NCBI RefSeq assembly: GCF_036721295.1
Contig: NZ_DAIMLK010000014.1
DNA from: Sphingorhabdus sp.
Lineage (GTDB): Bacteria; Pseudomonadota; Alphaproteobacteria; Sphingomonadales; Sphingomonadaceae
Length of the DNA stretch: 64,000 nucleotides
Strand: one strand, 5' to 3'
The notes under the pieces are model-generated. The model did not search any database, was not told where the DNA came from, and saw nothing but the letters and a program-made list of their open reading frames with translations. A program made the translations under genes and the position numbers. The first letter of the stretch is position 1. Each line of letters begins with the position of its first letter. This document shows positions 8,958 to 51,159 of this stretch, one piece after another.

Positions 8958-9473
8958 ATGGCCATCAATACACCACCCGTGCCGGATGCGCGGTTGAATA
9001 TGAAAATCCGTAGCCTTTTTCTGGACCATTTGGCGCAGACGGCGAATGTGGCGGCGTCGGCGCGCGCGGCTGGGGTGACGAGCAGTGCAGTCTATGCCGA
9101 ACGGCGGCGCACGCCGGCTTTTCGCGACGCATGGGCGCTGGCTCTGGCGGAGGGCTATGCCCGGTTGGAGACCGATTTGCTGGCCGAGGCGCTGCAGACG
9201 CCAAGCGGACGCACCGGCGATGGCACGTTAAAGGCGCGGGCGCAAAAACATCGGTTGGCGATTGCCTTGCTCAGCACGCATCGTGCCGCGGTCAAGGGTG
9301 GCGCGCCTGTTGCGCCTGCGTCCAAGACCGCCCATCCCGATTTGGCGACGTTAAAGGCGCAATTGGTCCTGAAGCTGACGCACATGCGGCAACGCGCCCA
9401 AGACAATGCCGCGGCGCGGCCTGCACCCGAAACCGAACCCGAAATTGAGGGCGCACCACATGCCGATGCCTAA
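8958..9473 (+). CDS. Phage/GTA small-terminase-like HTH protein
   Basis: 171 aa starting at the ATG preceded by AGGAGG (8946-8951). FLDHLAQTANVAASARAAGVTSSAVYAERRRTPAFRDAWALALAEGYARLE matches the HTH N-terminus I associate with alphaproteobacterial GTA/phage TerS proteins. Confidence 0.6.
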   Translation: MAINTPPVPDARLNMKIRSLFLDHLAQTANVAASARAAGVTSSAVYAERRRTPAFRDAWALALAEGYARLETDLLAEALQTPSGRTGDGTLKARAQKHRLAIALLSTHRAAVKGGAPVAPASKTAHPDLATLKAQLVLKLTHMRQRAQDNAAARPAPETEPEIEGAPHADA

Positions 9474-9621
9474 CGCGCAGGCGTTGCTCGCCCTACCGTA
9501 TGAACAGATGGTTGAGGTCATCCGCCGCTGGACCCGGAAAAACATCGCCGACACACAGTGCTGGAATTTTTGGGCGCGCGATGATCAGGCGGAACCTTTG
9601 GAGGATTTATGTCCGCATTAG
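9460..9621 (+). pseudogene. Truncated N-terminal stub of a GTA/phage large terminase (53 codons)
   Basis: MPMPNAQALLALPYEQMVEVIRRWTRKNIADTQCWNFWARDDQAEP... carries the W-x-FWAR-x-x-Q-x-x-P motif that precedes the Walker A box in GTA-type TerL. The frame stops (TAG 9619-9621) before any ATPase motif. Its start overlaps the TerS-like stop. Confidence 0.5.
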
Positions 9622-10058
9622 AAACTGGGCGCCATCGCCTGCCGCTTTTGGCAGTGTCGCAGGCGCAGAAAGAAATCACACATAATGAAGCGCTCGTGAT
9701 GATTGATGCGCTGCTGCACATGGCGGTTGAAGCAGCCTTGACGGCGCCACCTGTGGTCACCGATAATGATATCGGTAAATCTTGGATTATTCATGGAGCA
9801 CCAACGGGGGTTTGGGCGAACAAAGCTGGGCAGGTCGCCTACTGGATTGGTGGCAGTTGGCGTTTTGTTTTGCCCCATGAAGGCATGCGGGTCTGGAACA
9901 AATCCACACGAAGACATAGCCTGTTCATATCGGGCCAATGGACCACCGCGCCCTCGGTGCCAAATCCAACCGGCGGCACTGCCGTCGACAGCGAGGCGCG
10001 CATGGCACTTGTGGCAATTTTACAATATTTCAGGTTGATAGGCATACTGGCAACATGA
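9609..10058 (+). CDS. DUF2793-like protein (GTA/phage-associated small protein)
   Basis: 149 aa with RBS GGAGGA (9600-9605). The N-terminal signature LPLLAVSQAQKEITHNEALVMIDALL, plus GMRVW and VDSEAR...IL, are typical of this alphaproteobacterial family as I recall it. Confidence 0.7.
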   Translation: MSALETGRHRLPLLAVSQAQKEITHNEALVMIDALLHMAVEAALTAPPVVTDNDIGKSWIIHGAPTGVWANKAGQVAYWIGGSWRFVLPHEGMRVWNKSTRRHSLFISGQWTTAPSVPNPTGGTAVDSEARMALVAILQYFRLIGILAT

Positions 10059-10154
10059 TCCCAGAACGCTGAAAAACGACACAAATATTATGATAAATCG
10101 GCGGAAATGGCGACATTTTAGCAACAGTATAGAGACATAGCGGCTTGCATCGAT

Positions 10155-10179
10155 GGAACAGAATTGGTAGACCTGCGTT
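10155..10179 (+). promoter_or_regulatory. EcfG (general stress response sigma)-type promoter candidate
   Basis: GGAAC (10155-10159), a 16-nt spacer, then CGTT (10176-10179). This is an exact match to the GGAAC-N16/17-CGTT consensus and lies about 40 nt upstream of the OmpA-like start. Confidence 0.4.
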
Positions 10180-10218
10180 CTCGAATTTCCGTTCCTAAGA
10201 TAAATAAGGGGAAAGTTG

Positions 10219-11340
10219 ATGCGTAAGTTAGCCATAAGTTTGGCGCTCGCTTCTACTGCTCTGGCGTCACCGGCTTTGGCCCGCGATAACCAGTGGTATG
10301 TCGGAGTTGATGGCGGTGCCATGATAGTAGAAGACCTCGCTTTGGATATTGCTGGCCTGAATGATGCGGCAACAGTAGATCCAGACAAGGGTTATGATTT
10401 CGGCGGCGTAGTGGGCTATGATTTTGGCGGTTTCCGTCTTGAATCAGAAGTCTCGTATCGTAAGGCTGATGTGACTGGCTTCACCAGCCAAGCTCCCCAG
10501 ATCACCAGCGGCGCAGGTACGACCTTGGCCCGTGGCGGCACATATGCCGTAGCTGGTAACGCAAATGCATTGAGCTTCATGGTCAATGGCTTGCTCGATT
10601 TCGGTGACGATGACGGCCTTCAGGGCTTTGTTGGCGGCGGCGTTGGTGTCGCACGCGTAGACATGCAGACCGTTTTGGCTGCCCCTGCATTCCTCGATGA
10701 TTCGGACACGGGTTTTGCATGGCAGGCACTCGCTGGCGTTCGCGCGCCATTGAGCGACAATTGGGATATCGGCCTGAAATATCGTTTCTTTAACGCCAAC
10801 AAGGTCAGCCTGGTCGATCGCCTTGGCCGTGCAGTGGACTCACGCTTCCGTTCGCACAGCGTGATGGGCAGCCTGGTTTACAACTTCGGCGGCGCACCTG
10901 CGCCTGTTGAAGTTGTTGCACCACCGCCACCACCTCCATATGTGGCGCCACCCCCACCACCGCCACCACCGCCGCCACCTGCGCCGGTTTGCAACATGGG
11001 TCCGTATATCGTGTTCTTCGATTGGGATAATTCGAACCTGCGTCCAGACGCGGCTTCGGTTCTCGACAATGCCGTTGCGCAATATGCGAACTGTGGCAGC
11101 GCGAAGGTGATGCTTGCAGGTCACGCCGATAAATCGGGTACTGCAAAGTATAACGTTGGCCTCTCGCAGCGTCGTAACGACACCGTTCGTACGTACCTTG
11201 AGTCCAAGGGCGTAACAGCTGGCGCGATTGCCACTGAAGCGTTCGGTGAAACTGCGCCATTGGTACAAACTGCAGATGGTGAGCGTGAACCACAAAACCG
11301 TCGTGTAGAAGTTACCTACGGTCCAGGTTCGGGAATGTAA
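10219..11340 (+). CDS. OmpA-family outer-membrane protein (beta-barrel, poly-Pro linker, OmpA_C peptidoglycan-binding domain)
   Basis: It has a signal peptide (ALASTALASPALA) and a Gly/aromatic-rich barrel region. The linker reads PPPPPPYVAPPPPPPPPPPPAP. The C-terminal OmpA domain carries GHADKSGTAKYNVGLSQRR...NRRVEV. I preferred the ATG at 10219 over the TTG at 10216. Confidence 0.9.
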   Translation: MRKLAISLALASTALASPALARDNQWYVGVDGGAMIVEDLALDIAGLNDAATVDPDKGYDFGGVVGYDFGGFRLESEVSYRKADVTGFTSQAPQITSGAGTTLARGGTYAVAGNANALSFMVNGLLDFGDDDGLQGFVGGGVGVARVDMQTVLAAPAFLDDSDTGFAWQALAGVRAPLSDNWDIGLKYRFFNANKVSLVDRLGRAVDSRFRSHSVMGSLVYNFGGAPAPVEVVAPPPPPPYVAPPPPPPPPPPPAPVCNMGPYIVFFDWDNSNLRPDAASVLDNAVAQYANCGSAKVMLAGHADKSGTAKYNVGLSQRRNDTVRTYLESKGVTAGAIATEAFGETAPLVQTADGEREPQNRRVEVTYGPGSGM

Positions 11341-11368
11341 TTCCCAATCTGATTTCAGGTTAAAAGAA

Positions 11369-11397
11369 AGGCTGGTCGAAAGACCGGCCTTTTTTTT
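11369..11397. terminator. Rho-independent terminator between convergent ompA-like and glnD genes
   Basis: AGGCTGGTC-GAAA-GACCGGCCT (9 bp, one G-U) is followed by T7, with an A-rich stretch on the left. Confidence 0.7.
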
Positions 11398-11435
11398 GCT
11401 CTACATGCGTGATCCCGCTCATGGCAGTGCCGAAT

Positions 11436-14198
11436 TTAGGCCGCAGCCTTTGCTTTGACGCGTGCCTTCACTGCTGCTGCTTCCAAAAGCCGAGCTTCCA
11501 GTGCTTTTAGCTTATTCTTGTTTTCGATTTTGCCGCCGAATAAATCCGTCACATAAAATGTGTCGACCGCGCGTTCCTCGTAAGTTGCGATATGCGCGCT
11601 GTGCAATGTCACTTTGGATTCAAACAGCGCGAGCGCCAAATTGTTGAGCAAGGCGGGACGATCCAGCGCATTTACCTCAATCACTGTAAACCGGTTGGAA
11701 GCTTGATTATCAATCAAGACAGATGGCGCGATTTTGAATGCATCGGCCCGGCGCAGCGCTTTCGGTTTTGCATCCAGTTGAGTCATCAAACGTGCGCGGT
11801 TGGTGAGCGCCTCTTCAATGATACGCTTGAGGCGGTTTAACTGGCTTTGTTCCTGAAAAGGACGGCCCAGCGGATCCTGAATAAGGAAATTGTCAACCGC
11901 CATGCCGTCACTGCTGGTGTGAATCCGCGCATCGATGATGTTCCCGCCCGCCAAATGAATCGCGCCAGCTATCCGGTAAAACAGCCCGGGATGGTCGGCG
12001 GCAAAAACCGTCACGAGCGTCGCGCCTCGATCGGGATAGAAACACGCATCAATGGCAAGTTCCGTGCCCGCATTGGAAAGAAGGTGCCGAGCGTTCCGCT
12101 CAATGATGTCATCGGGCTCCGCGATCCAATAGGCGTCGGGAAGCTTTTTGGCAAAAGTAGAGAATGTATCTGCGGGTAAGCGCAACGCTGACCCCAGCAT
12201 CGCTTTTTTCGAGGCAATTCGCTCGTCCCGACCGCGTTGCTTATGTCCCAAACGCAGCACTTCTTCGGTCGCTTCAAACAGGTCCGACAAAAGTTGTCGT
12301 TTCCAGCTATTCCAAACACCCGGCCCAACGGCGCGGATGTCCACGACGGTCAAGACCAATAACAGCTTCAACCGCTCAGGTGACTGGACGGCTTGGGCAA
12401 AATCCAAGATAGTCTTGAAATCCGCCAAGTCCCGCTTGAACGCAGTGGCCGACATCAAAAGATGGTAACGGACGAGCCAAGCGACGGTTTCGGTCTCGGC
12501 TGGTGAGAGACCAAGCCGTGGGCATAAGGTTTCGGCAACCTCCGCACCTAACACGCTATGGTCACCCCCACGTCCCTTCGCAATATCGTGGAGCAAGGTA
12601 GCCACAAACAAGACCCGCTTGCTGACAATCTGTTGCACAATAGCCGTAGACAGCGGGTGATCCTGCTTTAGCATGCCCCGATTGATATCGGCGAGCAATC
12701 CAATCGCGCGGATCGAATGTTCATCGACCGTGTAATGATGGTACATGTCGAACTGCATTTGCGCGACGACACGTCGGAAATCGGGAATAAATCGGCCAAA
12801 AACGGTGGATTCATTCATCCAGCGCAGCACGGTTTCCGGGTCGCGTGGCGACGTCAATATATCCAAGAACAAGGCATTGGCTCTGGGGTCGCGTTGTACC
12901 ATTTTGTCGACCAACCGGGCATCCCTTTGAGCTGCGCGCATCGCCAGCGGGTGAATTTCCAATTCATGCAGATCTGCCAAATGAAATATCTCGAGCAAAC
13001 GCACGGGGTCTTGCGCAAAAAAATTTTCATCCGGCAGCGCCAAGCGACCACGATCCAGTTGAAAGCCGTTTAGCTTTCGCGGTTTTCGACTAAAGCTGGG
13101 CAAGAAGCGACGACCCTTTTTGGCCATAGCTTCGTCCAAATGCGCAAGGAAAAGCCCGGTCACATCGCCAACCGTTTTGGCGTTCAAAAAGTAAAATTGC
13201 ATGAACCGTTCAACTGCCGAGCGTCCGGGGCGATCGGCAAATTGCATAAGCTCCGCAACCTCACGTTGCAGATCAAAAGTCAGGCGCTCTTCCGCACGCC
13301 CCGTGATATTGTGCATATGACAACGCACGGCCCACAAGAAATTTTCGGCTTTCCTAAACCTATTATATTCATCGACTGTTAGCAGGCCAACGTCGACAAG
13401 TTCCGACGCGGTGGACACTTTATGGATATATTTTCCAATCCAATAGAGGGTGTGGAGGTCGCGAAGCCCGCCCTTGCCATCCTTGATATTCGGCTCGACT
13501 ACATATCGGCTGTCCCCCATGCGCCGGTGCCGATCATCGCGCTCCATCATCTTTAGACGAACAAAGTCAGATGCTGTGTTGCCGACGACTTCATTCCAGA
13601 AACGCAGCGAAGCCTCTTCGTAAACGCCCCTGTCGCCCCAAACAAACCGGCTTTCCAACAAAGCGGTGCGAATGGTCAGATCCTCTTGCGCCATCTTGAC
13701 GGTTTCATCGAGGGACCTACTCGATTGGCCAACCTTCAACCCAAGATCCCACAGCAAATAGAGGATCGCTTCAACGACCTGCTCTGTCCATGAGCTGCGC
13801 TTAAATGGTGTTACGAAGGCGATATCCACGTCGCTGTGCGGGGCCATTTCGCCGCGGCCATATCCACCGACCGCCAGAACCGCGATTCTTTCGGATGCGG
13901 AACGGTTGGCAGCGGGATAAGCATGGACGGTGACATAATCGTAAATGAGCCGGACGATTTGATCGACGAGAAATGCTTGCTCCGCCGACGCACGATAGCC
14001 TTGCGACGGCGCGGCATTTAGGCGTCGTTGAATTTCTGCCCGACCGTTGGCCAGAGCTGCTTGCAATATCTCGACAACGCGTAGACGGCGTGCGGGGGCC
14101 TCGCATACGCGCACGATACCCTCGATTTGTTCGGTAAGCGCGCTCCGGTCGATAATGTCGCGCTGCTTGAATATCCGTTCTGCTGCTGATGCCATCAC
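11436..14198 (-). CDS. glnD: [Protein-PII] uridylyltransferase / uridylyl-removing enzyme
   Basis: 920 aa with a nucleotidyltransferase region (AVGGYGRGEMAPHSDVD), an HD domain (LLHDIAKGRGGDHS) and two C-terminal ACT-like repeats. Confidence 0.95.
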   Translation of the reverse strand: MMASAAERIFKQRDIIDRSALTEQIEGIVRVCEAPARRLRVVEILQAALANGRAEIQRRLNAAPSQGYRASAEQAFLVDQIVRLIYDYVTVHAYPAANRSASERIAVLAVGGYGRGEMAPHSDVDIAFVTPFKRSSWTEQVVEAILYLLWDLGLKVGQSSRSLDETVKMAQEDLTIRTALLESRFVWGDRGVYEEASLRFWNEVVGNTASDFVRLKMMERDDRHRRMGDSRYVVEPNIKDGKGGLRDLHTLYWIGKYIHKVSTASELVDVGLLTVDEYNRFRKAENFLWAVRCHMHNITGRAEERLTFDLQREVAELMQFADRPGRSAVERFMQFYFLNAKTVGDVTGLFLAHLDEAMAKKGRRFLPSFSRKPRKLNGFQLDRGRLALPDENFFAQDPVRLLEIFHLADLHELEIHPLAMRAAQRDARLVDKMVQRDPRANALFLDILTSPRDPETVLRWMNESTVFGRFIPDFRRVVAQMQFDMYHHYTVDEHSIRAIGLLADINRGMLKQDHPLSTAIVQQIVSKRVLFVATLLHDIAKGRGGDHSVLGAEVAETLCPRLGLSPAETETVAWLVRYHLLMSATAFKRDLADFKTILDFAQAVQSPERLKLLLVLTVVDIRAVGPGVWNSWKRQLLSDLFEATEEVLRLGHKQRGRDERIASKKAMLGSALRLPADTFSTFAKKLPDAYWIAEPDDIIERNARHLLSNAGTELAIDACFYPDRGATLVTVFAADHPGLFYRIAGAIHLAGGNIIDARIHTSSDGMAVDNFLIQDPLGRPFQEQSQLNRLKRIIEEALTNRARLMTQLDAKPKALRRADAFKIAPSVLIDNQASNRFTVIEVNALDRPALLNNLALALFESKVTLHSAHIATYEERAVDTFYVTDLFGGKIENKNKLKALEARLLEAAAVKARVKAKAAA

Positions 14199-41583: not shown

Positions 41584-42651
41584 CTAAACCGCCAACCGTC
41601 CATGTTCCAGTTTCGGCAGAACATAGCGTGCGAACATGTCGCATTCATTGATGTGCGGATAGCCCGATAGAATGAAAGCCTCGATACCCACGTCGCGATA
41701 GGCGTTGATTTTGGCGAGCACTTGGTCGGGGTCGCCAACGATGGCAGCGCCGCAGCCGGAGCGGGCGCGGCCAATGCCGGTCCACAGATTATCTTCTAAA
41801 TAGCCATCATTTGCTTCGGCTTGCGCGCGCAATTCGGCCTGATGCGCAACGCCGAAGGTTTGGGTGTCGAGCGATTTGTTGCGGATTGCCTCACCCTGAT
41901 CGGCATCAAGCTTGGACAGCAAACGGTTGGCATAAGCGCGGGCCTCTGCCTCGCTGTCGCGGACGATGACATGCGCGCGGAAACCATATTTCAGTGTGCG
42001 ACCGAACTTGGCTGCGCGGGCGGTCATGTCTTCGACCAGGTCCTTGGCACCCTGCACCGTTTCGGGCCACATGAGATAGACGTCACAACCTTCGGCAGCG
42101 GCGTTCTTTGCGGCTGGCGACAGGCCACCAAAATAAAGCGGCGGGCATTTGCCGCTGACCGTTTTCATGCGCGGCGGGTCGATGTCGATCTTGTAATGCT
42201 CGCCATCGATCGACAGATGTTCGCCGTTCAGCAAAGTCTTCAATATGTGCATCGCCTCAACGGTGCGGCGGTAGCGGGGGTCGGAATCCATCTTGTGGCC
42301 GGGCAAATCCGACGAGATGATGTTGACGTTCAGCCGTCCACCCGAAATCTGGTCCAGCGTCGCGATCTGCCGTGCCAGTTGGGGAGGCCAGCTTTCGCCG
42401 ATACGCACAGCCATGAGCAATTTTATCCGCGTGGTTAGCACCGCAATCGCACTGGCAAAGGCGGTGGTATCAAGACCAAGGGTATAGCCCGATGGCAGCA
42501 AGATATTGTCAAACCCGCCTTTTTCAGCGGCCAAAACGATATTGCGGCAATGTTCCCAGCTGGAGGCCAAATTGGCGTCAGGCACGCCCAGAAATTCATA
42601 GTCGTCATCGCACAACGCGGAGAACCAGCTGACTTCAACAGGTTTGCTCAT
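41584..42651 (-). CDS. SsuD-like LLM-class flavin-dependent monooxygenase (candidate sulfoquinovose monooxygenase, SmoC-like)
   Basis: 355 aa from the ATG at 42651, which forms an ATGA overlap with the AKR stop. It is collinear with E. coli SsuD as I recall it: VSWFSAL...YEFLG, PPLYFGGLS, HVIVRDSEAEA, NLWTGIGRARSGCGAAIVGDPDQV and ILSGYPH. Confidence 0.8.
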   Translation of the reverse strand: MSKPVEVSWFSALCDDDYEFLGVPDANLASSWEHCRNIVLAAEKGGFDNILLPSGYTLGLDTTAFASAIAVLTTRIKLLMAVRIGESWPPQLARQIATLDQISGGRLNVNIISSDLPGHKMDSDPRYRRTVEAMHILKTLLNGEHLSIDGEHYKIDIDPPRMKTVSGKCPPLYFGGLSPAAKNAAAEGCDVYLMWPETVQGAKDLVEDMTARAAKFGRTLKYGFRAHVIVRDSEAEARAYANRLLSKLDADQGEAIRNKSLDTQTFGVAHQAELRAQAEANDGYLEDNLWTGIGRARSGCGAAIVGDPDQVLAKINAYRDVGIEAFILSGYPHINECDMFARYVLPKLEHGRLAV

Positions 42652-43550
42652 GGCAGTGGCACTCCTCTTGCCGCGACCAATACGCTGTAATAATCCGCGC
42701 GGGTCCATTGAATTTTGAAGGCATCGGCGGCTTCGGCAATCCGCGCTGGGTTTTGCGAGCCCACAATCGGGATCGGTCGGGCGGGGTGCGCCATGATCCA
42801 GCTATAGGCCGCCGCCGTGCGCGAAACGCCATGCGCCGATGCAACTGCCGAAAGGGCCGCCGCGACATTTTCTTCGCGCGTATTACTTGGTTCACCAATG
42901 CGTCCGCCGCCCAATGGCGACCATGCCATCACGGCCAAGTCCATCGCCATCGCTTGATCCAGTTCGCCATTTTCGACGGTGTCGATCCGCAAGGGCGACA
43001 GTTCGGGTTGTGTCGAGACGATGGGAACCGGGCTAAATTGCGCCAGCGTTGCAATCTGCGCTTGCGTAAAGTTGGACACGCCGAATGCGCGAATTTTGCC
43101 AGCTTTATGTGCGTTTTCGATAGTGCGGGCGATTTCCTGCGGGTGCGTCAACACGTCTGGCCGGTGAATTTGCCATAGGTCGATGCGGTCGGTGCGCAAA
43201 CGGGTCAGGCTGTCATCAATGGCTTTGGTCAGATATTCTGCGCTGCTGTCATAAGGGGTTGGCGGGGTGATGCCGCCCTTTGTCGCCAGCACCATGCGGT
43301 CGCGATACTCAGGGGCTTGCGCAAATATTTGGCCAAGCAGTTCTTCTGCCTTGCCAAAACCTTGCTCACCAAAACCGTAAATATCGGCGGTGTCAAACAG
43401 GGTGATGCCAGCATCAAACGCGGCATCAATGGCGGCGCGCGCTGCAGACAATTCAAGACCAGCAAAGCGCCACATGCCCCATGCGAGCGACGAGATTTCT
43501 ATGCCACTTTTGCCCAATGGACGGGTGCGTGATGGGGAAGAAAGGGTCAT
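42648..43550 (-). CDS. Aldo/keto reductase (candidate 6-oxo-glucose reductase, SmoB-like)
   Basis: 300 aa with AKR motifs LAWGMWRF, FDTADIYG and GVSNF. It has ATGA overlaps on both sides. Confidence 0.8.
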   Translation of the reverse strand: MTLSSPSRTRPLGKSGIEISSLAWGMWRFAGLELSAARAAIDAAFDAGITLFDTADIYGFGEQGFGKAEELLGQIFAQAPEYRDRMVLATKGGITPPTPYDSSAEYLTKAIDDSLTRLRTDRIDLWQIHRPDVLTHPQEIARTIENAHKAGKIRAFGVSNFTQAQIATLAQFSPVPIVSTQPELSPLRIDTVENGELDQAMAMDLAVMAWSPLGGGRIGEPSNTREENVAAALSAVASAHGVSRTAAAYSWIMAHPARPIPIVGSQNPARIAEAADAFKIQWTRADYYSVLVAARGVPLP

Positions 43551-44578
43551 GATTTTTTGCTCTTTTTTGCAGAAGGGAAATAAGGTGGGGCGACGGATTC
43601 GCGGCTGATAAGTTCGTGGGGCAGGCGGCGATGTTCAATCCCGCCTTCGCCAAACAAAAGGTCGGCGGCGGTCGAGGCAAGGTCGCGAACCGGCTGACGC
43701 ACGGTGGTCAAGGGCGGCCAAACAACGCGGGCCAGCGTGGTATCGTCAAAGCCGGCAACCGAAAGCTGCTCGGGGATTTGAATACCGCGCCGATGTGCGA
43801 CCGCAAGCACGCCCGATGCCATGTCGTCGTTTGATGCGAAAATCGCGGTGGGAGGATGCTTCAGCGACAGGAATTGTTCCGTTGCCGCTACGCCGCTTTC
43901 GAAATCAAACCGTCCCTCGGTAATCAGGTCAGAATCAACCGATATGCCGACGCGTCCTAAGGCGCGTTCGTAACCCGCTTGTCGTTCGGTACTCGCCTTA
44001 TGATTTGGGTGGCCCTTGATAAAGCCGATCCGCCGATGGCCGATGTTGATCAGCTTCGTCGTCATGTCGTCGGCAGCCTGCATGTCATCCATGAAGACGG
44101 AGCTGGTCAGTGCATGGTTGGTGCCAGGCGAGATGCGCACAAAGGGAATGTTGAGTGCCTCAAGTGCGTTGAGCACAGGCACGCAATCGGTGACGGGGGA
44201 GGAGAGTATCGCCCCATCGACATGCGTTTGCCGGACCATGCCGCGCACCTGTTCACCTACGTCTGGGTCGGCAACATCCACCGGCTGCGCGATTAAGCGC
44301 ATGCCTTCTTGATGGCAACGGTCCCAGCATCCTTGCATGATTTGGTGCATATAATAAGGGCTGTGATTGTCGTAGATGAGGGCAATCTGTCCTGACTTGT
44401 TGCCCGCAAGAATGCGCGCGGCAATACTTGGGCTAAAGCCAAGTTCCGACATGGCGGCGTCCACCTTGGCCTTAGTCGCCGCGCTCACATAAGGATGGTC
44501 GTTGAGCACGCGGCTAACGGTTTTAACCGCCACACCAGCCAGCTTTGCGACATCGCGTATGTTGGCGCGTGGGTTCAT
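43547..44578 (-). CDS. LacI-family transcriptional regulator
   Basis: 343 aa with an HTH N-terminus (IRDVAKLAGVAVKTVSRVLN) and a periplasmic-binding-protein-like sugar-binding core. Confidence 0.9.
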   Translation of the reverse strand: MNPRANIRDVAKLAGVAVKTVSRVLNDHPYVSAATKAKVDAAMSELGFSPSIAARILAGNKSGQIALIYDNHSPYYMHQIMQGCWDRCHQEGMRLIAQPVDVADPDVGEQVRGMVRQTHVDGAILSSPVTDCVPVLNALEALNIPFVRISPGTNHALTSSVFMDDMQAADDMTTKLINIGHRRIGFIKGHPNHKASTERQAGYERALGRVGISVDSDLITEGRFDFESGVAATEQFLSLKHPPTAIFASNDDMASGVLAVAHRRGIQIPEQLSVAGFDDTTLARVVWPPLTTVRQPVRDLASTAADLLFGEGGIEHRRLPHELISRESVAPPYFPSAKKSKKS

Positions 44579-46587
44579 GCAGAAAAAGCCGCGCGGATGG
44601 CCGCGAATAGGTCCGCATATGCGCTGTCGGCGCGGGTAAAGACAGGTGGCTGACCGTTCGGCGCAGCGATGTCATGCGTGCCTTTGCCATAGGCCTTGCC
44701 CGACCAGAGATGGACCCAGTCGCCATCGGGTATCACTACAGGGCGGCTCTCTTGGCCTTGCTCAACCACCGGTGCGACGATCATGTCAGCACCATAAAGA
44801 TATTGGTCCTGAATGTCGAAATATGCGGGGTCATCATAATGCAGGAATAAGGGCCGTTGCAGCGGCAGGCCAGTTGCCAATGCTTCGTCGCACAATGCGC
44901 GGACATAAGGCGCAAGCTGCGCATGGACTTGGCTCATCCGCGCAAAATGGCTCAGGATTTCGGGGCTGCTGTCGAGTTGCAAATTGTCCGCGGGGCGGTT
45001 GCCCTCATGGCTGCGCATCACGGGCGCAAAGGCAGCAAGGTCGATCCAGCGGTGCATAAGCTCCGCCGTCCGCACGACGCCGTGCAGGCTGGTATAGCCG
45101 CCCAAGTCGCTATGATGATAGGCGTTGCCCAACAGGCCCGATGACAAAGCGGCCGTTATCACCGTGTTGATGCCATCATGGCGCGTGAAATCCACACTTT
45201 GGTCGCCCGCCCATAATAAGGGGCAATGCGCCTGAACGCCCGAAAAACCTGCGCGCATGAAGAAGGTGGCGTCATGGGTCTTGCCGCGTGACGCGATCGC
45301 ATCTGCGTTTACCTTCGCCCATAAAACGGGCCAGCGATTATGCGCCTCCATCGGGTCAGAGCCGTCGAACAAGCGCACATCGGTTGGCAGATACTCGCCA
45401 AAATCGGCCATCCATCCTGACAGCCCGAAATCGAGCATTTCTTGGCCGATGATACGGTCGGCAAACCAATTGGCGGCGTCAGGATTGGTGAAATCCACGA
45501 CGCCAGCGTCAAATTCGCCGAAGTCGACGGCATAGACGTCGTCGCTGTCTTGCCGCAGCGCCAGATAATTATTGGCCAGCGCCTCTTGATAGAGTGCGCC
45601 ATCCACCGCCAGATAGGGGTTCACATAGCCCAAAAAGCGGATGCCCCGTTTGGCGAGCGAAGCTATCTGTGCAGGAAGATCAGGATAGCGCGCCGCGTTC
45701 CATTTCCAGTCCCAGAACAAGCGTTTGCCAAAACTGGTTTGGCGGATGCCTACCCAATCTTCGCACCACAGCCCCGAAAGGGCCGCGCCAGAGGCGGCAA
45801 TGGTCTCGAAGCGATCAAATGTATCCACGCCATCTTTCAGGCCGACAATCGCACCGGAAATGGCCCAGTCGGGCAAAGGCGGCTGGCGGCCGAAACGGTC
45901 GGATAATCTGGTCATCAGATCGGGTAGCGATGGCGCTTCAAACAATTCTAAATCGACATTGGCCGACCAGCATTCGATGCCCACCCGGCCCGCTTCAGAC
46001 AGGTCGAGTACCGAATAAGTCGTTGTTTCGAGGTGTACTGCATAACGCGCACTGCTTACCCATGTTGGCTGCGGATAATTGGTGGTCCAATAATCACCGC
46101 CCGCCATGCCATCTGCATCCATGGTCTGGGTAAGCGCGGTCGATTTATCGCGGCCAACCCCAGGCTCCGACGTCCAGAATGGAAAGCGTCGTCCGTTCAG
46201 CCGCAAATAGGACATTTGCTCCCCGCCGCCCCAAAAGGCTTCGGGCGTTGCGCACTGCATATCTACCCAAAGCCGGTTGACGGCTGGATCGCTGCAGCGA
46301 AATGTGAGGATGGTTTGCTGCGCCTTTTCCTCAAGCACCAGCGTTGCGACAATGTCGGGTCGCTTTGCGTTCCAAAGGCGGATACAACCGTCAACTTGGG
46401 CGGCGCAGTCCAGCTTCAATCGTGTTTCAACGATGTCGTCGATGCGAAAATTGCCACGAACCATTTCCAAATCAGGCGAGCCAACGCCAATGCTGATAGC
46501 AGGCGCACCCGCGCGATGTGACAGCATGCAGTTGTTATCGCGCAGTAGGTCAAAGCCGTCTGTTTGCATGATGACTTTAAATGGCAA
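44575..46587 (-). CDS. yihQ: GH31 sulfoquinovosidase (YihQ/SmoI family)
   Basis: 670 aa with a TTG start preceded by GAGAGGGA (alternative ATG at 46569). It is block-by-block collinear with my recollection of E. coli YihQ. Matching blocks are GNFRIDD, GGGEQMSYLRLNGRRFPFWTSEPGVGRDK, AGGDYWTTNYPQPTW, GRQPPLPDW and WCEDWVGIRQTSFGKRLFWDWKWN (the R-x-x-W sulfonate pocket). Further blocks are GWMADFGEYLPTD (nucleophile Asp), LWAGDQSVDF (acid/base), HHSDLGGYT and MRSHEGNRP. Confidence 0.85.
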   Translation of the reverse strand: MPFKVIMQTDGFDLLRDNNCMLSHRAGAPAISIGVGSPDLEMVRGNFRIDDIVETRLKLDCAAQVDGCIRLWNAKRPDIVATLVLEEKAQQTILTFRCSDPAVNRLWVDMQCATPEAFWGGGEQMSYLRLNGRRFPFWTSEPGVGRDKSTALTQTMDADGMAGGDYWTTNYPQPTWVSSARYAVHLETTTYSVLDLSEAGRVGIECWSANVDLELFEAPSLPDLMTRLSDRFGRQPPLPDWAISGAIVGLKDGVDTFDRFETIAASGAALSGLWCEDWVGIRQTSFGKRLFWDWKWNAARYPDLPAQIASLAKRGIRFLGYVNPYLAVDGALYQEALANNYLALRQDSDDVYAVDFGEFDAGVVDFTNPDAANWFADRIIGQEMLDFGLSGWMADFGEYLPTDVRLFDGSDPMEAHNRWPVLWAKVNADAIASRGKTHDATFFMRAGFSGVQAHCPLLWAGDQSVDFTRHDGINTVITAALSSGLLGNAYHHSDLGGYTSLHGVVRTAELMHRWIDLAAFAPVMRSHEGNRPADNLQLDSSPEILSHFARMSQVHAQLAPYVRALCDEALATGLPLQRPLFLHYDDPAYFDIQDQYLYGADMIVAPVVEQGQESRPVVIPDGDWVHLWSGKAYGKGTHDIAAPNGQPPVFTRADSAYADLFAAIRAAFSA

Positions 46588-46801
46588 CTTTCATCCCTCT
46601 CGCCGTTTCGAACCGGTTACTATGACAACATTGCAACAGTCCCGACTTAAAAATCGTCGTCATATGACACCGCTAGACATATTGAGTCAATCTGGTAACA
46701 ACCCCGCCATTGCTAAGGTATGTCCCCACATAGCTTTTATTGCTTGAGTAAACTCAAGTGATTTGGTTGAGAAGCGGACGGCCATTTTTAGGGAGGTACA
46801 T

Positions 46802-49195
46802 ATGATGTTCAGTTCTGAATTTAAGAAATCGTCTTTCGTCCGCGCTTCATTGTTCGCAAGCGCCGCAATCATGGCAGGTGTCAGCCTGCCTGCGGTGGCG
46901 CAGACCGCTCCTGCAGAAGATGATTCTGCCAATGCAGAAATCATCGTAACCGCGCAGAAGCGTGAAGAGCGTTTGCAGGATATTCCGCTCGCCGTATCCG
47001 TTGTTGGCGGAGAGGCTGTGGCCAATAATGGCGGCATCACGCTTGAAAATGCCCAGTATCTTGTTCCAAGCTTAAACTTCCGCAAGGCGGGTACGTCACT
47101 GAACCAGGCATTGTTCCTGCGCGGCGTTGGCACCATCAACTTCTCGATTGCTGCTGAACCATCGGTCGCTGCTGTTCTCGACGGTGTCGTCTTGAGCCGC
47201 GCTGGTGAAGGCTTCACGGATTTGTTCGACGTTGAGCGTATCGAAGTTTTGCGCGGACCGCAGGGCACATTGTTCGGAAAGAACGCGTCCGCTGGTGTCG
47301 TAAGCATCGTGACGAAGCGTCCGACGGCTGAATATGGCGCGACGGTTGAAGGTTCATTTTTCACGAAATCCGAATATCGCGGTCGTGCGACGGTTAACTT
47401 GCCGCTTGGCGCCCATGTGCGTTCGCGCTTCACCGGATTTTACGGAAGCTATGACGGCAACGTTAACAATCTGACCACTGGCAAAAAGGTCAATGGCTAT
47501 GAACATTATAGTGTTCGTGGAGCTATTGAAGCCGACGTTAGCGAAAAAGTAATGCTGACGCTGCGCGCCGATTACCGCAAAGCCGATGATGATTGCTGTG
47601 CCGAAATTATTGGCAACACGCCAACCAATGCTGCCGCTCTCGCGCTGGTTGGAACTGGCTTCGATCGTTCGGATTCACGCAACATTCGGCAAAACCTCGT
47701 CACCGCGACGAAGGAAGAAAGCTGGGGCATCGCGCTGCAAGCAGACGTTGAATTGGGCGATCATAGTCTGACTTCGATCACCAGCTATCGTGGTTGGGAC
47801 AATACTGAAATCCGCGATGGTGACTGGCTCGACCGGCCCTATGTTGGTTTGAACCAATTGCACGATAATGGCCCGCAAACATCGAACACCTTTAGCCAAG
47901 AAGTTCGGATTGCTTCGCCGACCGGCGAATTCCTCGAATATGTTGTTGGGGCATATTATTCGAAGGCGGAGTCGGACCGTACATTTACGCGCAATGTGAT
48001 TACATGTTCAGCATCAACGCTTGCTGCGGTTGTGCCGGGCCTCACACCTTGTTCAACGGCTGCAGGGGCGTCGACGATCACAACCCCTGCCGGAACGGCT
48101 GACTTTGGTTCGACATTCAAAAACATGTCGGTATTTGGTCAGGCGACGTTCAACCTATCGGACAGCCTGCGTTTGATTGGTGGCTTGCGCTACACAGATG
48201 ACGAATTGGATGTAAACCATGTCCGCCGGACCTCGCTCGCAGGTCCAGGTGTGCAACCAAATTTTGACGCGGGCGTTTACAATAATGGTCTTGTGGCAAC
48301 AGCCCCGGCAACAGGCTTTGTCGCAGGCGCGTCGAACGGTGTTCCTTTCACCACAAGCACGAGCAACACTAACGTTTCGGGTAAGGCAGCCGTTCAGGCG
48401 GACCTCACGGAAAACAATATGGCTTATGCAAGCTATACCCGTGGTTATAAAGGCCCAGCCTACAATATATTCTACAACCTAACGACGCCGGGCGCTGGTG
48501 TTATCGCACCAGAAACGGTCAACGCGTATGAAGTGGGTTTGAAAAATACGTTCCTTGACGGCGACCTGATTGTTAACCTCGCGGCATATTATGCCAAGTA
48601 TAACAATTATCAGGCAAACAGCCCCGATTTCGTGGCCGGTGTGCGTACCACACGCCTGACAAATGCTGGTTCGGTCTCCACCAAGGGTTTCGAACTGGAC
48701 TTTGTCGCCACCCCTTTGCGTAACTTTACCCTTTCGGGCGGCGTTGCTTACAACAAGGCGCAGGTTGAGAATTTCCGTTTGCCACCGGGTGCCGATGCAT
48801 CACAATTGGTTGCCAAGGGCACGCCGCTCGCGAATGCTCCAAAATGGAAAATGGCGTTTGGTGCGCAATATGATATCGAAACGTCGGGTTTTGCGAATAT
48901 CGAATTGGGAAGCCAGATCGCAATGCAGTCAGACCAGATTTACGAAGCAAGTGCGAACCCGGCCGTTCGCCTTGGTTCGACGGTAGATGGCTACGCGATT
49001 GTCGACTTGTCGGCAGCTCTGGTTGATCCCAATGATGGCTGGCGTCTGGCGTTTCAGGTTAAGAATCTGTTCGATAAAAGCTTTGCATCCTCGATTGTAT
49101 CGGGTGGCCCTGGCGGTGCATATCGCTACATCATCCCCCGCGAGGCGGACCGTTATTTTGGCGTAACAGCGAAGATCAATTTCGGCGCGAAATAA
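46802..49195 (+). CDS. TonB-dependent receptor
   Basis: 797 aa from the ATG at 46802, with RBS GGGAGG at 46791-46796. It has a signal peptide (AGVSLPAVAQ), the plug motif IIVTAQKREERLQDIPLAVSVV, and a long beta-barrel ending in an aromatic-rich C-terminus. Confidence 0.9.
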   Translation: MMFSSEFKKSSFVRASLFASAAIMAGVSLPAVAQTAPAEDDSANAEIIVTAQKREERLQDIPLAVSVVGGEAVANNGGITLENAQYLVPSLNFRKAGTSLNQALFLRGVGTINFSIAAEPSVAAVLDGVVLSRAGEGFTDLFDVERIEVLRGPQGTLFGKNASAGVVSIVTKRPTAEYGATVEGSFFTKSEYRGRATVNLPLGAHVRSRFTGFYGSYDGNVNNLTTGKKVNGYEHYSVRGAIEADVSEKVMLTLRADYRKADDDCCAEIIGNTPTNAAALALVGTGFDRSDSRNIRQNLVTATKEESWGIALQADVELGDHSLTSITSYRGWDNTEIRDGDWLDRPYVGLNQLHDNGPQTSNTFSQEVRIASPTGEFLEYVVGAYYSKAESDRTFTRNVITCSASTLAAVVPGLTPCSTAAGASTITTPAGTADFGSTFKNMSVFGQATFNLSDSLRLIGGLRYTDDELDVNHVRRTSLAGPGVQPNFDAGVYNNGLVATAPATGFVAGASNGVPFTTSTSNTNVSGKAAVQADLTENNMAYASYTRGYKGPAYNIFYNLTTPGAGVIAPETVNAYEVGLKNTFLDGDLIVNLAAYYAKYNNYQANSPDFVAGVRTTRLTNAGSVSTKGFELDFVATPLRNFTLSGGVAYNKAQVENFRLPPGADASQLVAKGTPLANAPKWKMAFGAQYDIETSGFANIELGSQIAMQSDQIYEASANPAVRLGSTVDGYAIVDLSAALVDPNDGWRLAFQVKNLFDKSFASSIVSGGPGGAYRYIIPREADRYFGVTAKINFGAK

Positions 49196-49221
49196 GCTCA
49201 ACTGTAAACTTTAAAATCAAA

Positions 49222-49257
49222 AGGCTGGAATCCATATCGGGTCCCGGCCTTTTTTTG
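49222..49257 (+). terminator. Probable rho-independent terminator after the TonB-dependent receptor gene
   Basis: AGGCTGG ... CCGGCCT form 7 bp (one G-U) with a 15-nt loop, followed by T7 at 49251-49257. Confidence 0.55.
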
Positions 49258-49394
49258 GCTAAAGCTTTGCGCCACTCAAGCACGGACGGGTGGTGTAAGA
49301 CCATGAGCAGCCGGCCCGTTCGTGCCCGTTTCCAGAAATTTGATAACCCGGTCGCCGTGCCATATGTGCGCCACCCCTTTCTCTTTTGTACGTT

Positions 49395-50327
49395 ATGCGC
49401 CATATCGCCGTTATGGAATGGCCCGACACGATTAAAGCAGGCGAAACTGAACAGCATGAGCCGCTTGTGCGGCGCGTTCTGGCGCCTAATGCCTCGCCTT
49501 ATACCTATACGGGCACGCAGACGTGGATCGTCGGCAAAAAAACAGACGTTGCTATCATCGACCCTGGCCCTGTGGGAAGCGGGCAAAGCGTTGGTGACCC
49601 CGCAGACATTCATGGCGAAGGCCATGTAGAGGCGATCTTGCGCGCAGTGGGCGATGCAAAAGTCACCGCGATCCTGTGCACGCATACCCACCGCGATCAT
49701 TCGCCCGCAGCCGCGCCATTGAAAGTCGCAACAGGCGCGCAGATTATTGGCTGCGCGCCTTTGGTGCTGCGCGATGATGGCCCGCGCGCCGACAGCGCCT
49801 TTGATCCCGATTATCACCCAGATCGCATCCTGAAGGACGCACATGCCATTTCAGGCGATGGTTGGACGTTGGAGGCCGTGGCGACGCCGGGACACACGAG
49901 TAACCATCTCTGCTTTGCATTGCGTGAAAGCGGGGCGTTGTTCACTGGCGACCATGTGATGAAATGGTCGACAAGCGTTGTCAGTCCGCCCGATGGCGAT
50001 ATGAGCGATTATCTGGCGAGCTTGCAGAAATTATATGAACGGGACGACCGCGTCTATTATCCGGCACATGGCCCAGCGGTAAACAATCCGCGCCAGCTTG
50101 TGCGCGGGATGATTGGCCATCGCCGGCAACGTGAACGCCAGATCGTGACCTTGCTGGAGGGCGGCGAGGGGTACATTCCCAATATGGTGGCCGTTATGTA
50201 TAAAGGCCTTGATCCGCGCCTGATCGGCGCTGCTGGGCGCTCGGTTCTTGCGCATCTCATTGATTTGCAAAATCAGGGGCGTGTGGCGGCACAAGGTGAT
50301 GGCTGGCATCTTATAGTACAAGCTTGA
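49395..50327 (+). CDS. MBL-fold metallo-hydrolase (LACTB2-like)
   Basis: I chose the ATG at 49395. It has the metal motif HTHRDHS and later GDH / PGHT contexts, plus a C-terminal winged-helix-like tail. Confidence 0.8.
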   Translation: MRHIAVMEWPDTIKAGETEQHEPLVRRVLAPNASPYTYTGTQTWIVGKKTDVAIIDPGPVGSGQSVGDPADIHGEGHVEAILRAVGDAKVTAILCTHTHRDHSPAAAPLKVATGAQIIGCAPLVLRDDGPRADSAFDPDYHPDRILKDAHAISGDGWTLEAVATPGHTSNHLCFALRESGALFTGDHVMKWSTSVVSPPDGDMSDYLASLQKLYERDDRVYYPAHGPAVNNPRQLVRGMIGHRRQRERQIVTLLEGGEGYIPNMVAVMYKGLDPRLIGAAGRSVLAHLIDLQNQGRVAAQGDGWHLIVQA

Positions 50328-50394: not shown

Positions 50395-51159
50395 ATGGCT
50401 ACTTTGGGTGGGGCACAATCGCGCGCAAGTGACGCCGATAATTTTTTCCGCATACTTGCGATAATCATGGCCTTCACGGTCGTTGCGGGTTTTTCAGTTC
50501 AGTATCTCGCCGGACGATCCAGCTTTGGTGCGCGAACGCTTGTGCATGTGCATGGGCTTGCCTTCATGGCCTGGGTCGGCCTGTTTGTCGCGCAGGCGTG
50601 GCTGGCAACGCATGGGCCGATTTCGCTGCACCGGCGCTTGGGCTGGATATTGGTCCTTGTGCTGCTGGGCAGCGTCATCACCATTGACGTTATTCAGCGT
50701 GGGACGACGCCATTTTTCTTTCAACCGCAGAATTTCCTGATTGCCAACCCGTTCTCCGCGATCATGTTTGCGGCGCTTGCATGGACCGCTATCCGCCTTC
50801 GTCGGCACACTGACTGGCATATGCGCCTGCACATTTGTGCGATGACGACCATCATTGGGCCTGCATTTGGCCGGTTGTTGCCGATGCCCTTGCTCATACC
50901 CTACGCATTTGAGATGGCCGGGATTGTTAGCCTTGTTTTTCCGGTTGCCGGAATTGTCCATGATCTGCGCAAGTATGGCCACGTGCATCCTGCATGGTAT
51001 TGGGGCATCGCGGCGGTTCTGTCGGTAATTCCGGTGTCGCACATTGTTGCGAATTCGGCGTTGGGTGACGCGATCTATGCTGCGGTCACGGCGGGACATC
51101 CCGGTGCAGACGTTCCCGGCATGGAATTTGCCCCGCCACTGACAATCCCTTCAAGCTAG
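50395..51159 (+). CDS. Hypothetical integral membrane protein (about 6 TM)
   Basis: 254 aa with alternating hydrophobic segments. No family recognised. Confidence 0.55.
   Translation: MATLGGAQSRASDADNFFRILAIIMAFTVVAGFSVQYLAGRSSFGARTLVHVHGLAFMAWVGLFVAQAWLATHGPISLHRRLGWILVLVLLGSVITIDVIQRGTTPFFFQPQNFLIANPFSAIMFAALAWTAIRLRRHTDWHMRLHICAMTTIIGPAFGRLLPMPLLIPYAFEMAGIVSLVFPVAGIVHDLRKYGHVHPAWYWGIAAVLSVIPVSHIVANSALGDAIYAAVTAGHPGADVPGMEFAPPLTIPSS

Follow-up and report, generated by a model that had tools for sequence, protein, structure and literature searches.

A TonB-dependent receptor beside a sulfoquinovosidase operon of Sphingorhabdus as the probable outer-membrane step of a putative two-locus sulfoquinovose regulon

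Sulfoquinovose (SQ) is an abundant sulfosugar of algae and plants, with an output of ~10 billion tonnes per year as quoted in PMC12780224 and elsewhere, and the degradation of SQ is an important link of the sulfur cycle as well as of the carbon cycle. Studies of SQ catabolism have centred on cytoplasmic enzymes and on ABC, TRAP and MFS importers, and the crossing of the outer membrane in Gram-negative bacteria has barely been addressed. Here, a TonB-dependent receptor gene was analyzed that lies beside SQ genes in a 64,000-nt stretch of Sphingorhabdus sp. (RefSeq assembly GCF_036721295.1, contig NZ_DAIMLK010000014.1); this whole stretch is called the window, and positions without a contig name refer to it. 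The gene (46802..49195, plus strand) encodes a complete, genuine TonB-dependent outer-membrane receptor. Judged from its neighbours and relatives, the receptor probably captures sulfoquinovosyl-glycerol (SQ-glycerol), and probably also free SQ, into the periplasm, as the first step of a sulfo-SMO regulon that is split over two loci.

The closest solved relatives of three enzymes encoded beside the receptor are SmoI, SmoC and SmoB of the Agrobacterium tumefaciens smo cluster (SmoA-I), and the chemistry predicted for the locus is the same, in that SQ-glycerol is converted to SQ, SQ to sulfite and 6-dehydroglucose, and the latter to glucose. Agrobacterium uses the ABC importer SmoEFGH for uptake, whereas uptake here would apparently rely on an MFS carrier together with the TonB-dependent receptor, under a regulator of the LacI type. 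Neither SmoEFGH (or any other ABC system) with its SQ-glycerol binding protein nor the SmoA flavin reductase was found in or near the cluster of the window. To our knowledge, no outer-membrane component has been described for the Agrobacterium smo cluster. Carbohydrate TonB-dependent transporters of alphaproteobacteria and Xanthomonas include MalA (maltodextrin), SuxA (sucrose) and NagA (GlcNAc), in which a non-SusC receptor stands beside a LacI-type regulator, a cytoplasmic glycosidase and an MFS carrier and serves high-affinity scavenging of small sugars. By this description the locus here shares their gene logic, with an anionic sulfonated glycoside as the presumed substrate. A sulfo-ASMO cluster is also known from Novosphingobium aromaticivorans DSM 12444 (Liu et al. 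2021, as cited in PMC9594981); as far as the citing account describes it, the cluster combines a sphingomonad YihQ with an alkanesulfonate-type monooxygenase and a reductase, as here. Two loci of Novosphingobium metagenome-assembled genomes (MAGs; L089 and L090) have the same layout of yihQ, lacI, aldo-keto reductase and luciferase-like monooxygenase genes with a TonB-dependent receptor and an MFS gene. No mention of a TonB-dependent receptor for the N. aromaticivorans cluster was found in the full-text literature searched, a set to which Liu et al. 2021 itself does not belong.

An outer-membrane receptor has been linked to SQ in Alteromonas macleodii ATCC 27126, where the TonB-dependent receptor of the SQ cluster, reported as MASE_18030, was 107-fold more abundant on SQ, “potentially facilitating SQ uptake” (PMC12780224, Nat Commun 2025). 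The proteins of that cluster rose on SQ-glycerol too, and the statement on the receptor is a single sentence backed by proteomics, without transport data (PMC12780224). This paper was the one relevant precedent in the full-text literature searched for SQ with TonB, the outer membrane or uptake, and no receptor is mentioned in the accessible reviews and surveys of sphingomonad SQ degraders. The Alteromonas and Sphingorhabdus loci are alike in having an outer-membrane TonB-dependent receptor in the SQ cluster beside a cytoplasmic sulfoquinovosidase (SQase), together with an inner-membrane carrier, and the counterpart of Alteromonas portus is 37% identical to the receptor here (E 6e-149) and belongs with it to one clade of high support. 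They differ in desulfonation (the flavin monooxygenase SmoC here, the Fe/2-oxoglutarate dioxygenase SqoD in Alteromonas), in the SQase (GH31_13 YihQ versus the SqgH clade), in the regulator (LacI versus GntR) and in the inner-membrane partner (an unlinked MFS protein versus an adjacent SSF symporter). An SQ-cluster TonB-dependent receptor is already known from A. macleodii, and the present case extends that finding rather than founding a new one; what is added are members from sphingomonads, the finding that SQ-linked receptors of different pathways are monophyletic, the proposed two-locus regulon with its operator, and a cassette-like swap of receptors. An earlier note on the window, made from its sequence, had regarded an anionic sulfosugar as an unusual substrate class for the family; this view is weakened by the A. 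macleodii receptor and by the position of the Alteromonas counterpart in the same clade.

The receptor reading frame is open over 46763-49195 on the plus strand, and translation from the ATG at 46802, which lies five bases downstream of a Shine-Dalgarno sequence (AGGGAGG, 46791-46797), gives a protein of 797 amino acid residues (46802..49195, stop included). A signal peptide could be read off the translation (residues 1-34, 46802..46903, ending ...SLPAVAQ before TAPAEDD), and its A-x-A-Q cleavage context is also present in relatives. It is followed by the TonB box EIIVTAQ (then KR; residues 46-52, 46937..46957), which is kept in an alignment of 24 sequences, with V49, T50, A51 and K53 invariant or almost so. 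The Plug domain (PF07715, 55.4 bits against a cut-off of 23.9) covers approximately residues 58-166 (46973..47299), and the beta-barrel region (PF00593, 142 bits) occupies 47300..49192. An AlphaFold2 model built with the 24-sequence alignment (pLDDT 79.7, pTM 0.80) showed the expected strand pattern of plug and barrel, with residues 1-54 disordered. When the model was searched with Foldseek, FyuA, FptA, PiuA, FoxA and FhuA were retrieved at 14-18% identity, with E 3e-48 and TM 0.71/0.89 for FyuA; a PDB sequence search found similarity at the level of the plug only. The protein thus has an N-terminal plug within a C-terminal barrel, a signal peptide and a TonB box, and TonB genes are present in the genome (2.35 Mb, 35 contigs, 100% complete), which holds 28 plug-domain genes and two TonB_C genes above cut-off. 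The closest paralogues in the same genome are at most ~30% identical over their length.

None of the NCBIfam subfamily or equivalog models reached its cut-off with the receptor, and the equivalogs remained far below. The TonB-dependent siderophore receptor model TIGR01783 gave 162 bits against a cut-off of 223.5, and iron-related neighbours are absent; the SusC/RagA model TIGR04056 gave 58 bits against 368, and there is no SusD-like neighbour. Within the barrel, a DDDCC motif (residues 262-266) and the pair C402/C417 are conserved across the SQ-linked clade described below, and K95, R338, H354, D355, R397, R775 and R780, among others, are conserved specifically in that clade according to the alignment and are at most candidate sulfonate ligands.

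Linkage of the receptor to SQ genes was analyzed in one sample of 200 genomes of the family, which was searched with the receptor (threshold E <= 1e-100), YihQ and the SmoC-like protein. The receptor was found in 49 of the 200 genomes. A SmoC homologue accompanied it in 48 of these 49 and was present in five of the 151 genomes without it, leaving one genome with the receptor only and 146 with neither. Of the 53 SmoC-bearing genomes, 43 have the receptor gene and smoC <= 15 kb apart, and contig ends interrupt four more; the carriers of this linkage represent > 30 GTDB genera. Adjacency was counted by hand from the match coordinates, and a P value was omitted since the relatives are not independent. 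In the 40 loci that were mapped, the receptor homologues fell into two groups, clade A (51-74% identity to the receptor here) and clade B (41-44%), both of which divergently adjoin yihQ. Many clade-A genes are located in genomes without yihQ, where the position between the receptor gene and smoB or lacI is taken by a Gfo/Idh/MocA gene. The best PDB matches of this gene were 8QC2 and 8QC3 (368 and 363 bits; next family 77), which we take to be NAD-dependent SqgA sulfoquinovosidases. An NAD-dependent SQase of the SqgA type is known to accompany sulfo-SMO clusters (PMC12780224). Since the SqgA-like gene replaces yihQ beside the receptor, the receptor appears to track the SQ pathway whichever SQase is used. 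One genome of the same genus (G091) has no receptor, yihQ or smoC, in a region too rearranged to show an empty site.

Beyond the family, genome contigs were scanned by pattern and the loci were then mapped by tblastn. A 94%-identical receptor with identical synteny was found in MAG L084 (CALRLP020000001.1), and a 74%-identical relative in a Sphingorhabdus MAG. SQ-linked homologues of 37-42% identity were located in Caulobacter sp. HMWF025, Sphingomonas cavernae, Sphingomonas sp. PP-CC-1A-547, an alphaproteobacterial MAG, a Pseudomonadales MAG and A. portus, and no SQ genes were seen at the mapped loci of homologues below ~35% identity. The A. portus locus (sulfite oxidase-YeiH-TauD-type dioxygenase-aldo-keto reductase-GntR-TauE-GH31-SSF symporter-receptor) corresponds in its predicted genes to the sulfo-SDO/SqgH cluster described for A. 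macleodii. Among 41 Alteromonas genomes, receptor and SqgH were present together in 18 and both absent in 23. In a FastTree phylogeny of 114 receptors of known context, all 46 SQ-linked receptors formed one clade (support 1.0) and 59 that are not SQ-linked lay outside; the clade also holds eight sequences of ambiguous context and otherwise no unlinked receptor. Three pathway types are spanned by it, namely YihQ with SmoBC, SqgA-like with SmoBC, and SqgH with SqoD. An earlier tree that included anonymous library representatives placed further uncharacterised members between clades A and B. In two betaproteobacterial MAGs (L117, 9650-17238, and L098), a receptor of the clade was observed beside a 45-46% identical SqgA-like Gfo/Idh/MocA gene; L117 additionally holds genes for an ABC permease and an SBP_bac_1 binding protein, and in it the receptor and an ABC importer are probably joined in one SQ cluster.

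The receptor gene shares a divergent control region of 214 nt with yihQ (46588..46801), which was aligned with those of two close relatives. It contains a conserved 21-bp operator-like inverted repeat, ATATGACA-CCGCT-AGACATAT (46662..46682, written on the plus strand); the repeat precedes the yihQ start by 74 nt and the receptor ATG by 119 nt, and its right arm holds a -35-like TAGACA/TTGACA. The form ATATGACA-CCGCT-TGACATAT, with arms of 8 nt, is present in all 21 yihQ-receptor spacers, with 17 of the 21 positions invariant; outside this element, the 21 spacers do not align overall. In a genome-wide scan with a position weight matrix, the copy in the window ranked first (34.5 bits), and the only other strong copy was found at position 97111 of contig C10 (25.9 bits, ~0.08 expected by chance). 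The third-best match, within mfd on contig C8, was discarded as a chance match. The element also occurs, in the same orientation, in the spacers between MFS and YeiH genes of ten related loci. We infer that it is bound by the LacI-family protein encoded in the operon.

Other candidates for a common operator were rejected. The conservation of the spacer palindromes CCGTTTCGAACCGG/AACCGGTT and CTTGAGTAAACTCAAG stops at the closest relatives, and the 16-bp palindrome GCTTGACATATC was superseded when the aligned conserved block was found to reach leftwards to ATATGACA. A further palindrome, CTTGAGT-AA-ACTCAAG in the receptor leader (46743..46758, plus strand), is lineage-specific, being partly kept in L084 and absent from a genome of the same genus, G182.

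Comparison of the window with G182 gave ~80% DNA identity from prfA through yihQ. The identity stops at 46682, where the operator ends, and picks up again at the MBL-fold gene on the far side of the receptor (window 46682-49419; locus L032 of G182, 9104-13875). Between these breakpoints, G182 carries a clade-B receptor (42% identical) and a BlaI/BlaR1-like pair, and L084 retains the clade-A receptor throughout. The receptor therefore appears to have been replaced in situ, in a cassette-like manner, behind one operator in genomes of the same genus. Two receptor lineages thus occupy one slot behind the same operator, as expected if an outer-membrane function related to SQ is selected for at this site. 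The ~30 nt before the receptor start (46770-46801, AAGCGGnCGGCnATTnnAGGGAGGnAC) were almost identical in the window, L084 and G182 despite the different receptor clades; they may mark a second boundary of recombination or be conserved as a leader or as an element of translation initiation. The BlaI/BlaR1-like pair (Penicillinase_R and Peptidase_M56) lies between the receptor and MBL-fold genes in L084 (12453-14657) and L032 (11508-13756) and is absent from the corresponding part of the window (49196-49385).

The second copy of the operator marks a second locus. At C10 ~95805-99700 (L080 4773-8736), an MFS_1 gene on the minus strand is divergent from a YeiH (PF03601)-GlpD pair on the plus strand, and the operator copy at C10:97111 sits within the ~110-nt spacer between the MFS and YeiH genes. 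In relatives, the families that flank the receptor are MFS, YeiH, GlpD, GlpK, FMN reductase and RibB; an MFS_1 transporter directly adjoins the receptor in 15 related loci, and in locus L093 a 69% orthologue of the MFS protein of this genome directly adjoins the genes for aldo-keto reductase, LacI, YihQ and the TonB-dependent receptor. The unlinked MFS protein of C10 is likely to be the inner-membrane importer of the pathway. Because the MFS/YeiH spacer carries the operator copy and the same families flank the receptor in relatives, the cluster of the window is best read as half of a two-locus regulon, with the outer- and inner-membrane steps split over the two loci. The C10 locus would then supply the importer and the sulfur-anion exporter that are apparently missing from the window, and the split would explain why so compact a cluster seems to lack both an importer and sulfite handling.

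These results bear on the earlier note. The divergent arrangement of the 797-residue receptor and the SQase gene across 214 nt was confirmed by open reading frames, start sites and Pfam. Pfam scans of the genes between 36 and 60 kb agreed that no ABC or MFS importer is linked to the cluster; they detected no flavin reductase or sulfite exporter near it either, and the nearest transport-like gene encodes an orphan SBP_bac_5 protein 7 kb away. The suggested check for co-occurrence of receptor and yihQ in Sphingomonadales relatives was strongly positive in the 200 family genomes. Synteny and the shared operator also bear out the interpretation that the receptor belongs functionally with the SQ genes. 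The idea that the receptor fills the transporter slot as a stand-in for an inner-membrane importer is not supported, given the MFS_1 gene beside the receptor in 15 relatives, the operator-bearing MFS gene on C10 and the orthologue in L093.

In the mechanism proposed here, SQ-glycerol, and probably SQ, from decaying phototroph membranes would bind to the receptor, and TonB-ExbBD would power its passage into the periplasm. Import through the inner membrane would be the task of the MFS carrier, and YihQ in the cytoplasm would then split the glycoside into SQ and glycerol, the glycerol being used via GlpD (with GlpK in relatives). SmoC, with an unlinked flavin reductase, would free sulfite, SmoB would turn 6-dehydroglucose into glucose, and YeiH would export sulfite or sulfate. 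The LacI-family protein would repress both divergent promoter pairs until SQ or SQ-glycerol is present. As in other oligotrophs rich in TonB-dependent receptors, the receptor would be important mainly at low substrate concentration.

Several observations weigh against this reading. Among the 53 SmoC-bearing family genomes, three have the receptor unlinked and three have no close receptor homologue. The operator element was not found in the SqgA-type loci, it departs from the textbook LacI palindrome, which has a CG at its centre, and a scan with the sigma-70 consensus called no canonical promoter in the yihQ-receptor spacer. MASE_18030 was matched to the Alteromonas receptor by synteny and genus-wide co-occurrence, not by sequence; since the gene order of A. 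portus puts the SSF symporter directly after SqgH, the tag may be one gene off, or the gene order may differ. SQ-glycerol (~320 Da) could cross ordinary porins, and the receptor may be dispensable at high concentration. Finally, the specificity of the receptor may be broader than SQ glycosides, because some members of the clade sit in other or unknown contexts. L066, L101 and G129 have no visible SQ genes, and in a Pseudomonas sp. MAG (L094, 8685-16519) the clade receptor lies beside genes for LacI, a ~500-residue luciferase-like monooxygenase, TauD and an ABC permease, without an SQase; this may be a different organosulfonate cluster that uses the same receptor lineage.

The Pseudomonas locus favours an alternative in which the receptor transports organosulfonates more broadly or scavenges sulfur and its linkage to SQ genes reflects sulfonate chemistry, not recognition of the sugar; TonB-dependent receptors have reportedly been proposed for the use of sulfate esters in Pseudomonas putida as well (sftP). 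Such a role was considered unlikely. In alphaproteobacteria and Alteromonas, an SQase gene (YihQ, SqgA-like or SqgH) is always among the partners, frequently joined by glycerol genes; this set points to the glycoside as a carbon source, and the regulator is of the sugar type (LacI or GntR), not a sulfur-starvation regulator of the CysB/Cbl type.

Somewhat less probable again is the import of lipid-linked forms (sulfoquinovosyl mono- or diacylglycerol), which would be deacylated in the periplasm or cytoplasm. TonB-dependent receptors fit large substrates that exceed the porin limit, sulfoquinovosyl diacylglycerol (SQDG) is a substrate of SQases of this type in vitro (PMC12780224), and a 2011 paper on SAR86 speculated on sulfolipid use near TonB-dependent receptor genes. 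Against this, no lipase or esterase recurs in the at least 60 loci examined, YihQ has no signal peptide, the recurrent sugar-type carrier (MFS or SSF) with GlpD/GlpK fits the import of intact SQ-glycerol, and R. denitrificans was unable to use added SQDG (PMC12780224). The lack of a recurrent lipase, the cytoplasmic location of the SQase and the presence of glycerol genes in the clusters favour the glycoside over the lipid form. That the adjacency has no functional meaning and the receptor imports a siderophore, a cofactor or a neutral sugar is very improbable: its top NCBIfam match is a generic siderophore-receptor subfamily, the nearest solved folds are siderophore receptors and TonB-dependent receptor genes are numerous in this genome, but the siderophore model stays below its cut-off, the linkage and phyletic pattern are kept across three pathway types and > 30 genera, the SQ-linked receptors form a single clade, the operator is shared, and Pfam scans of the neighbourhood found no FecIR-type extension and no iron-uptake neighbours.

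Capture of SQ glycosides is the reading retained for the receptor of the window. On a larger scale, we lean slightly towards the view that one widespread TonB-dependent lineage is dedicated to SQ glycosides, serves three SQ pathways in Alpha-, Gamma- and probably Betaproteobacteria, and provides the missing outer-membrane step of SQ catabolism; it would be the first such family for an anionic sulfosugar, with two sphingomonad sub-lineages that apparently replace each other in cassette fashion at a conserved operator. A receptor lineage that follows SQ clusters through several pathways and classes could provide a marker gene by which SQ scavengers are recognised in freshwater and marine metagenomes, and a defined target for studies of sulfonate recognition by knockout, binding and structure. 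It would also explain how small-genome oligotrophs like this Sphingorhabdus-like organism compete for dilute SQ-glycerol.

The minus-strand genes divergent from the receptor form a four-gene operon, yihQ-lacI-smoB-smoC. The SQase gene of the YihQ/SmoI type (GH31; 44575..46587; NCBIfam PRK10426, 862 bits) starts at a TTG (46587) with the Shine-Dalgarno sequence GAGAGGGA. Its product has the A. tumefaciens SQase SmoI as the closest solved relative (PDB 5OHS/7OFX, 837 bits), and in the alignment with SmoI the sulfonate-binding motifs RLFW and GGY and both catalytic Asp motifs are identical; lacking a signal peptide, it is predicted to be cytoplasmic. The gene of the LacI-family regulator, the presumed repressor at the operator (43547..44578; Pfam LacI and Peripla_BP_3), is syntenic in relatives, with 63-92% identity. 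The next gene (42648..43550; PF00248) encodes an aldo-keto reductase resembling the 6-dehydroglucose reductase SmoB; its top PDB match was 7BBZ/7BBY (156 bits), with YdhF just behind (151 bits), and the SmoB assignment is the weakest of the three enzyme assignments. The last gene (41584..42708) encodes a luciferase-like monooxygenase, a putative SQ monooxygenase of the SmoC type, with 368 bits to 7OLF and 362 bits to 7OH2, its best PDB matches, against ~190-215 bits to SsuD. The longest open reading frame of this gene overlaps the reductase gene by 61 nt; because homology to SmoC begins only near residue 23, the start is probably the ATG at 42651, which gives an ATGA overlap. With an SQase that holds the sulfonate-binding and catalytic residues, a SmoC-type monooxygenase and a SmoB-type reductase, the operon appears to be an ordinary one of the sulfo-SMO/ASMO type.

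The flanks of the cluster are housekeeping genes, with hisS-prfA on the left and the MBL-fold gene and nadA on the right. An open reading frame for 254 residues without a Pfam match (50395-51159, plus strand) lies between the MBL-fold gene and nadA and is absent there in G182 and L084. The L084 locus has ~83% DNA identity to the window and the full hisS-prfA-smo-receptor-MBL-nadA synteny; its label, Maricaulis salignorans, or its binning looks wrong, and the MAG looks like a Sphingorhabdus-like sphingomonad. When the cluster-linked FMN reductase of a relative was used as the query, no match was found in this genome. The sole matches to the FMN_red and Flavin_Reduct families in the genome, at C10:188021-188254 and C28:59735-60172, are unlinked to either SQ locus and are candidate flavin reductases for SmoC.

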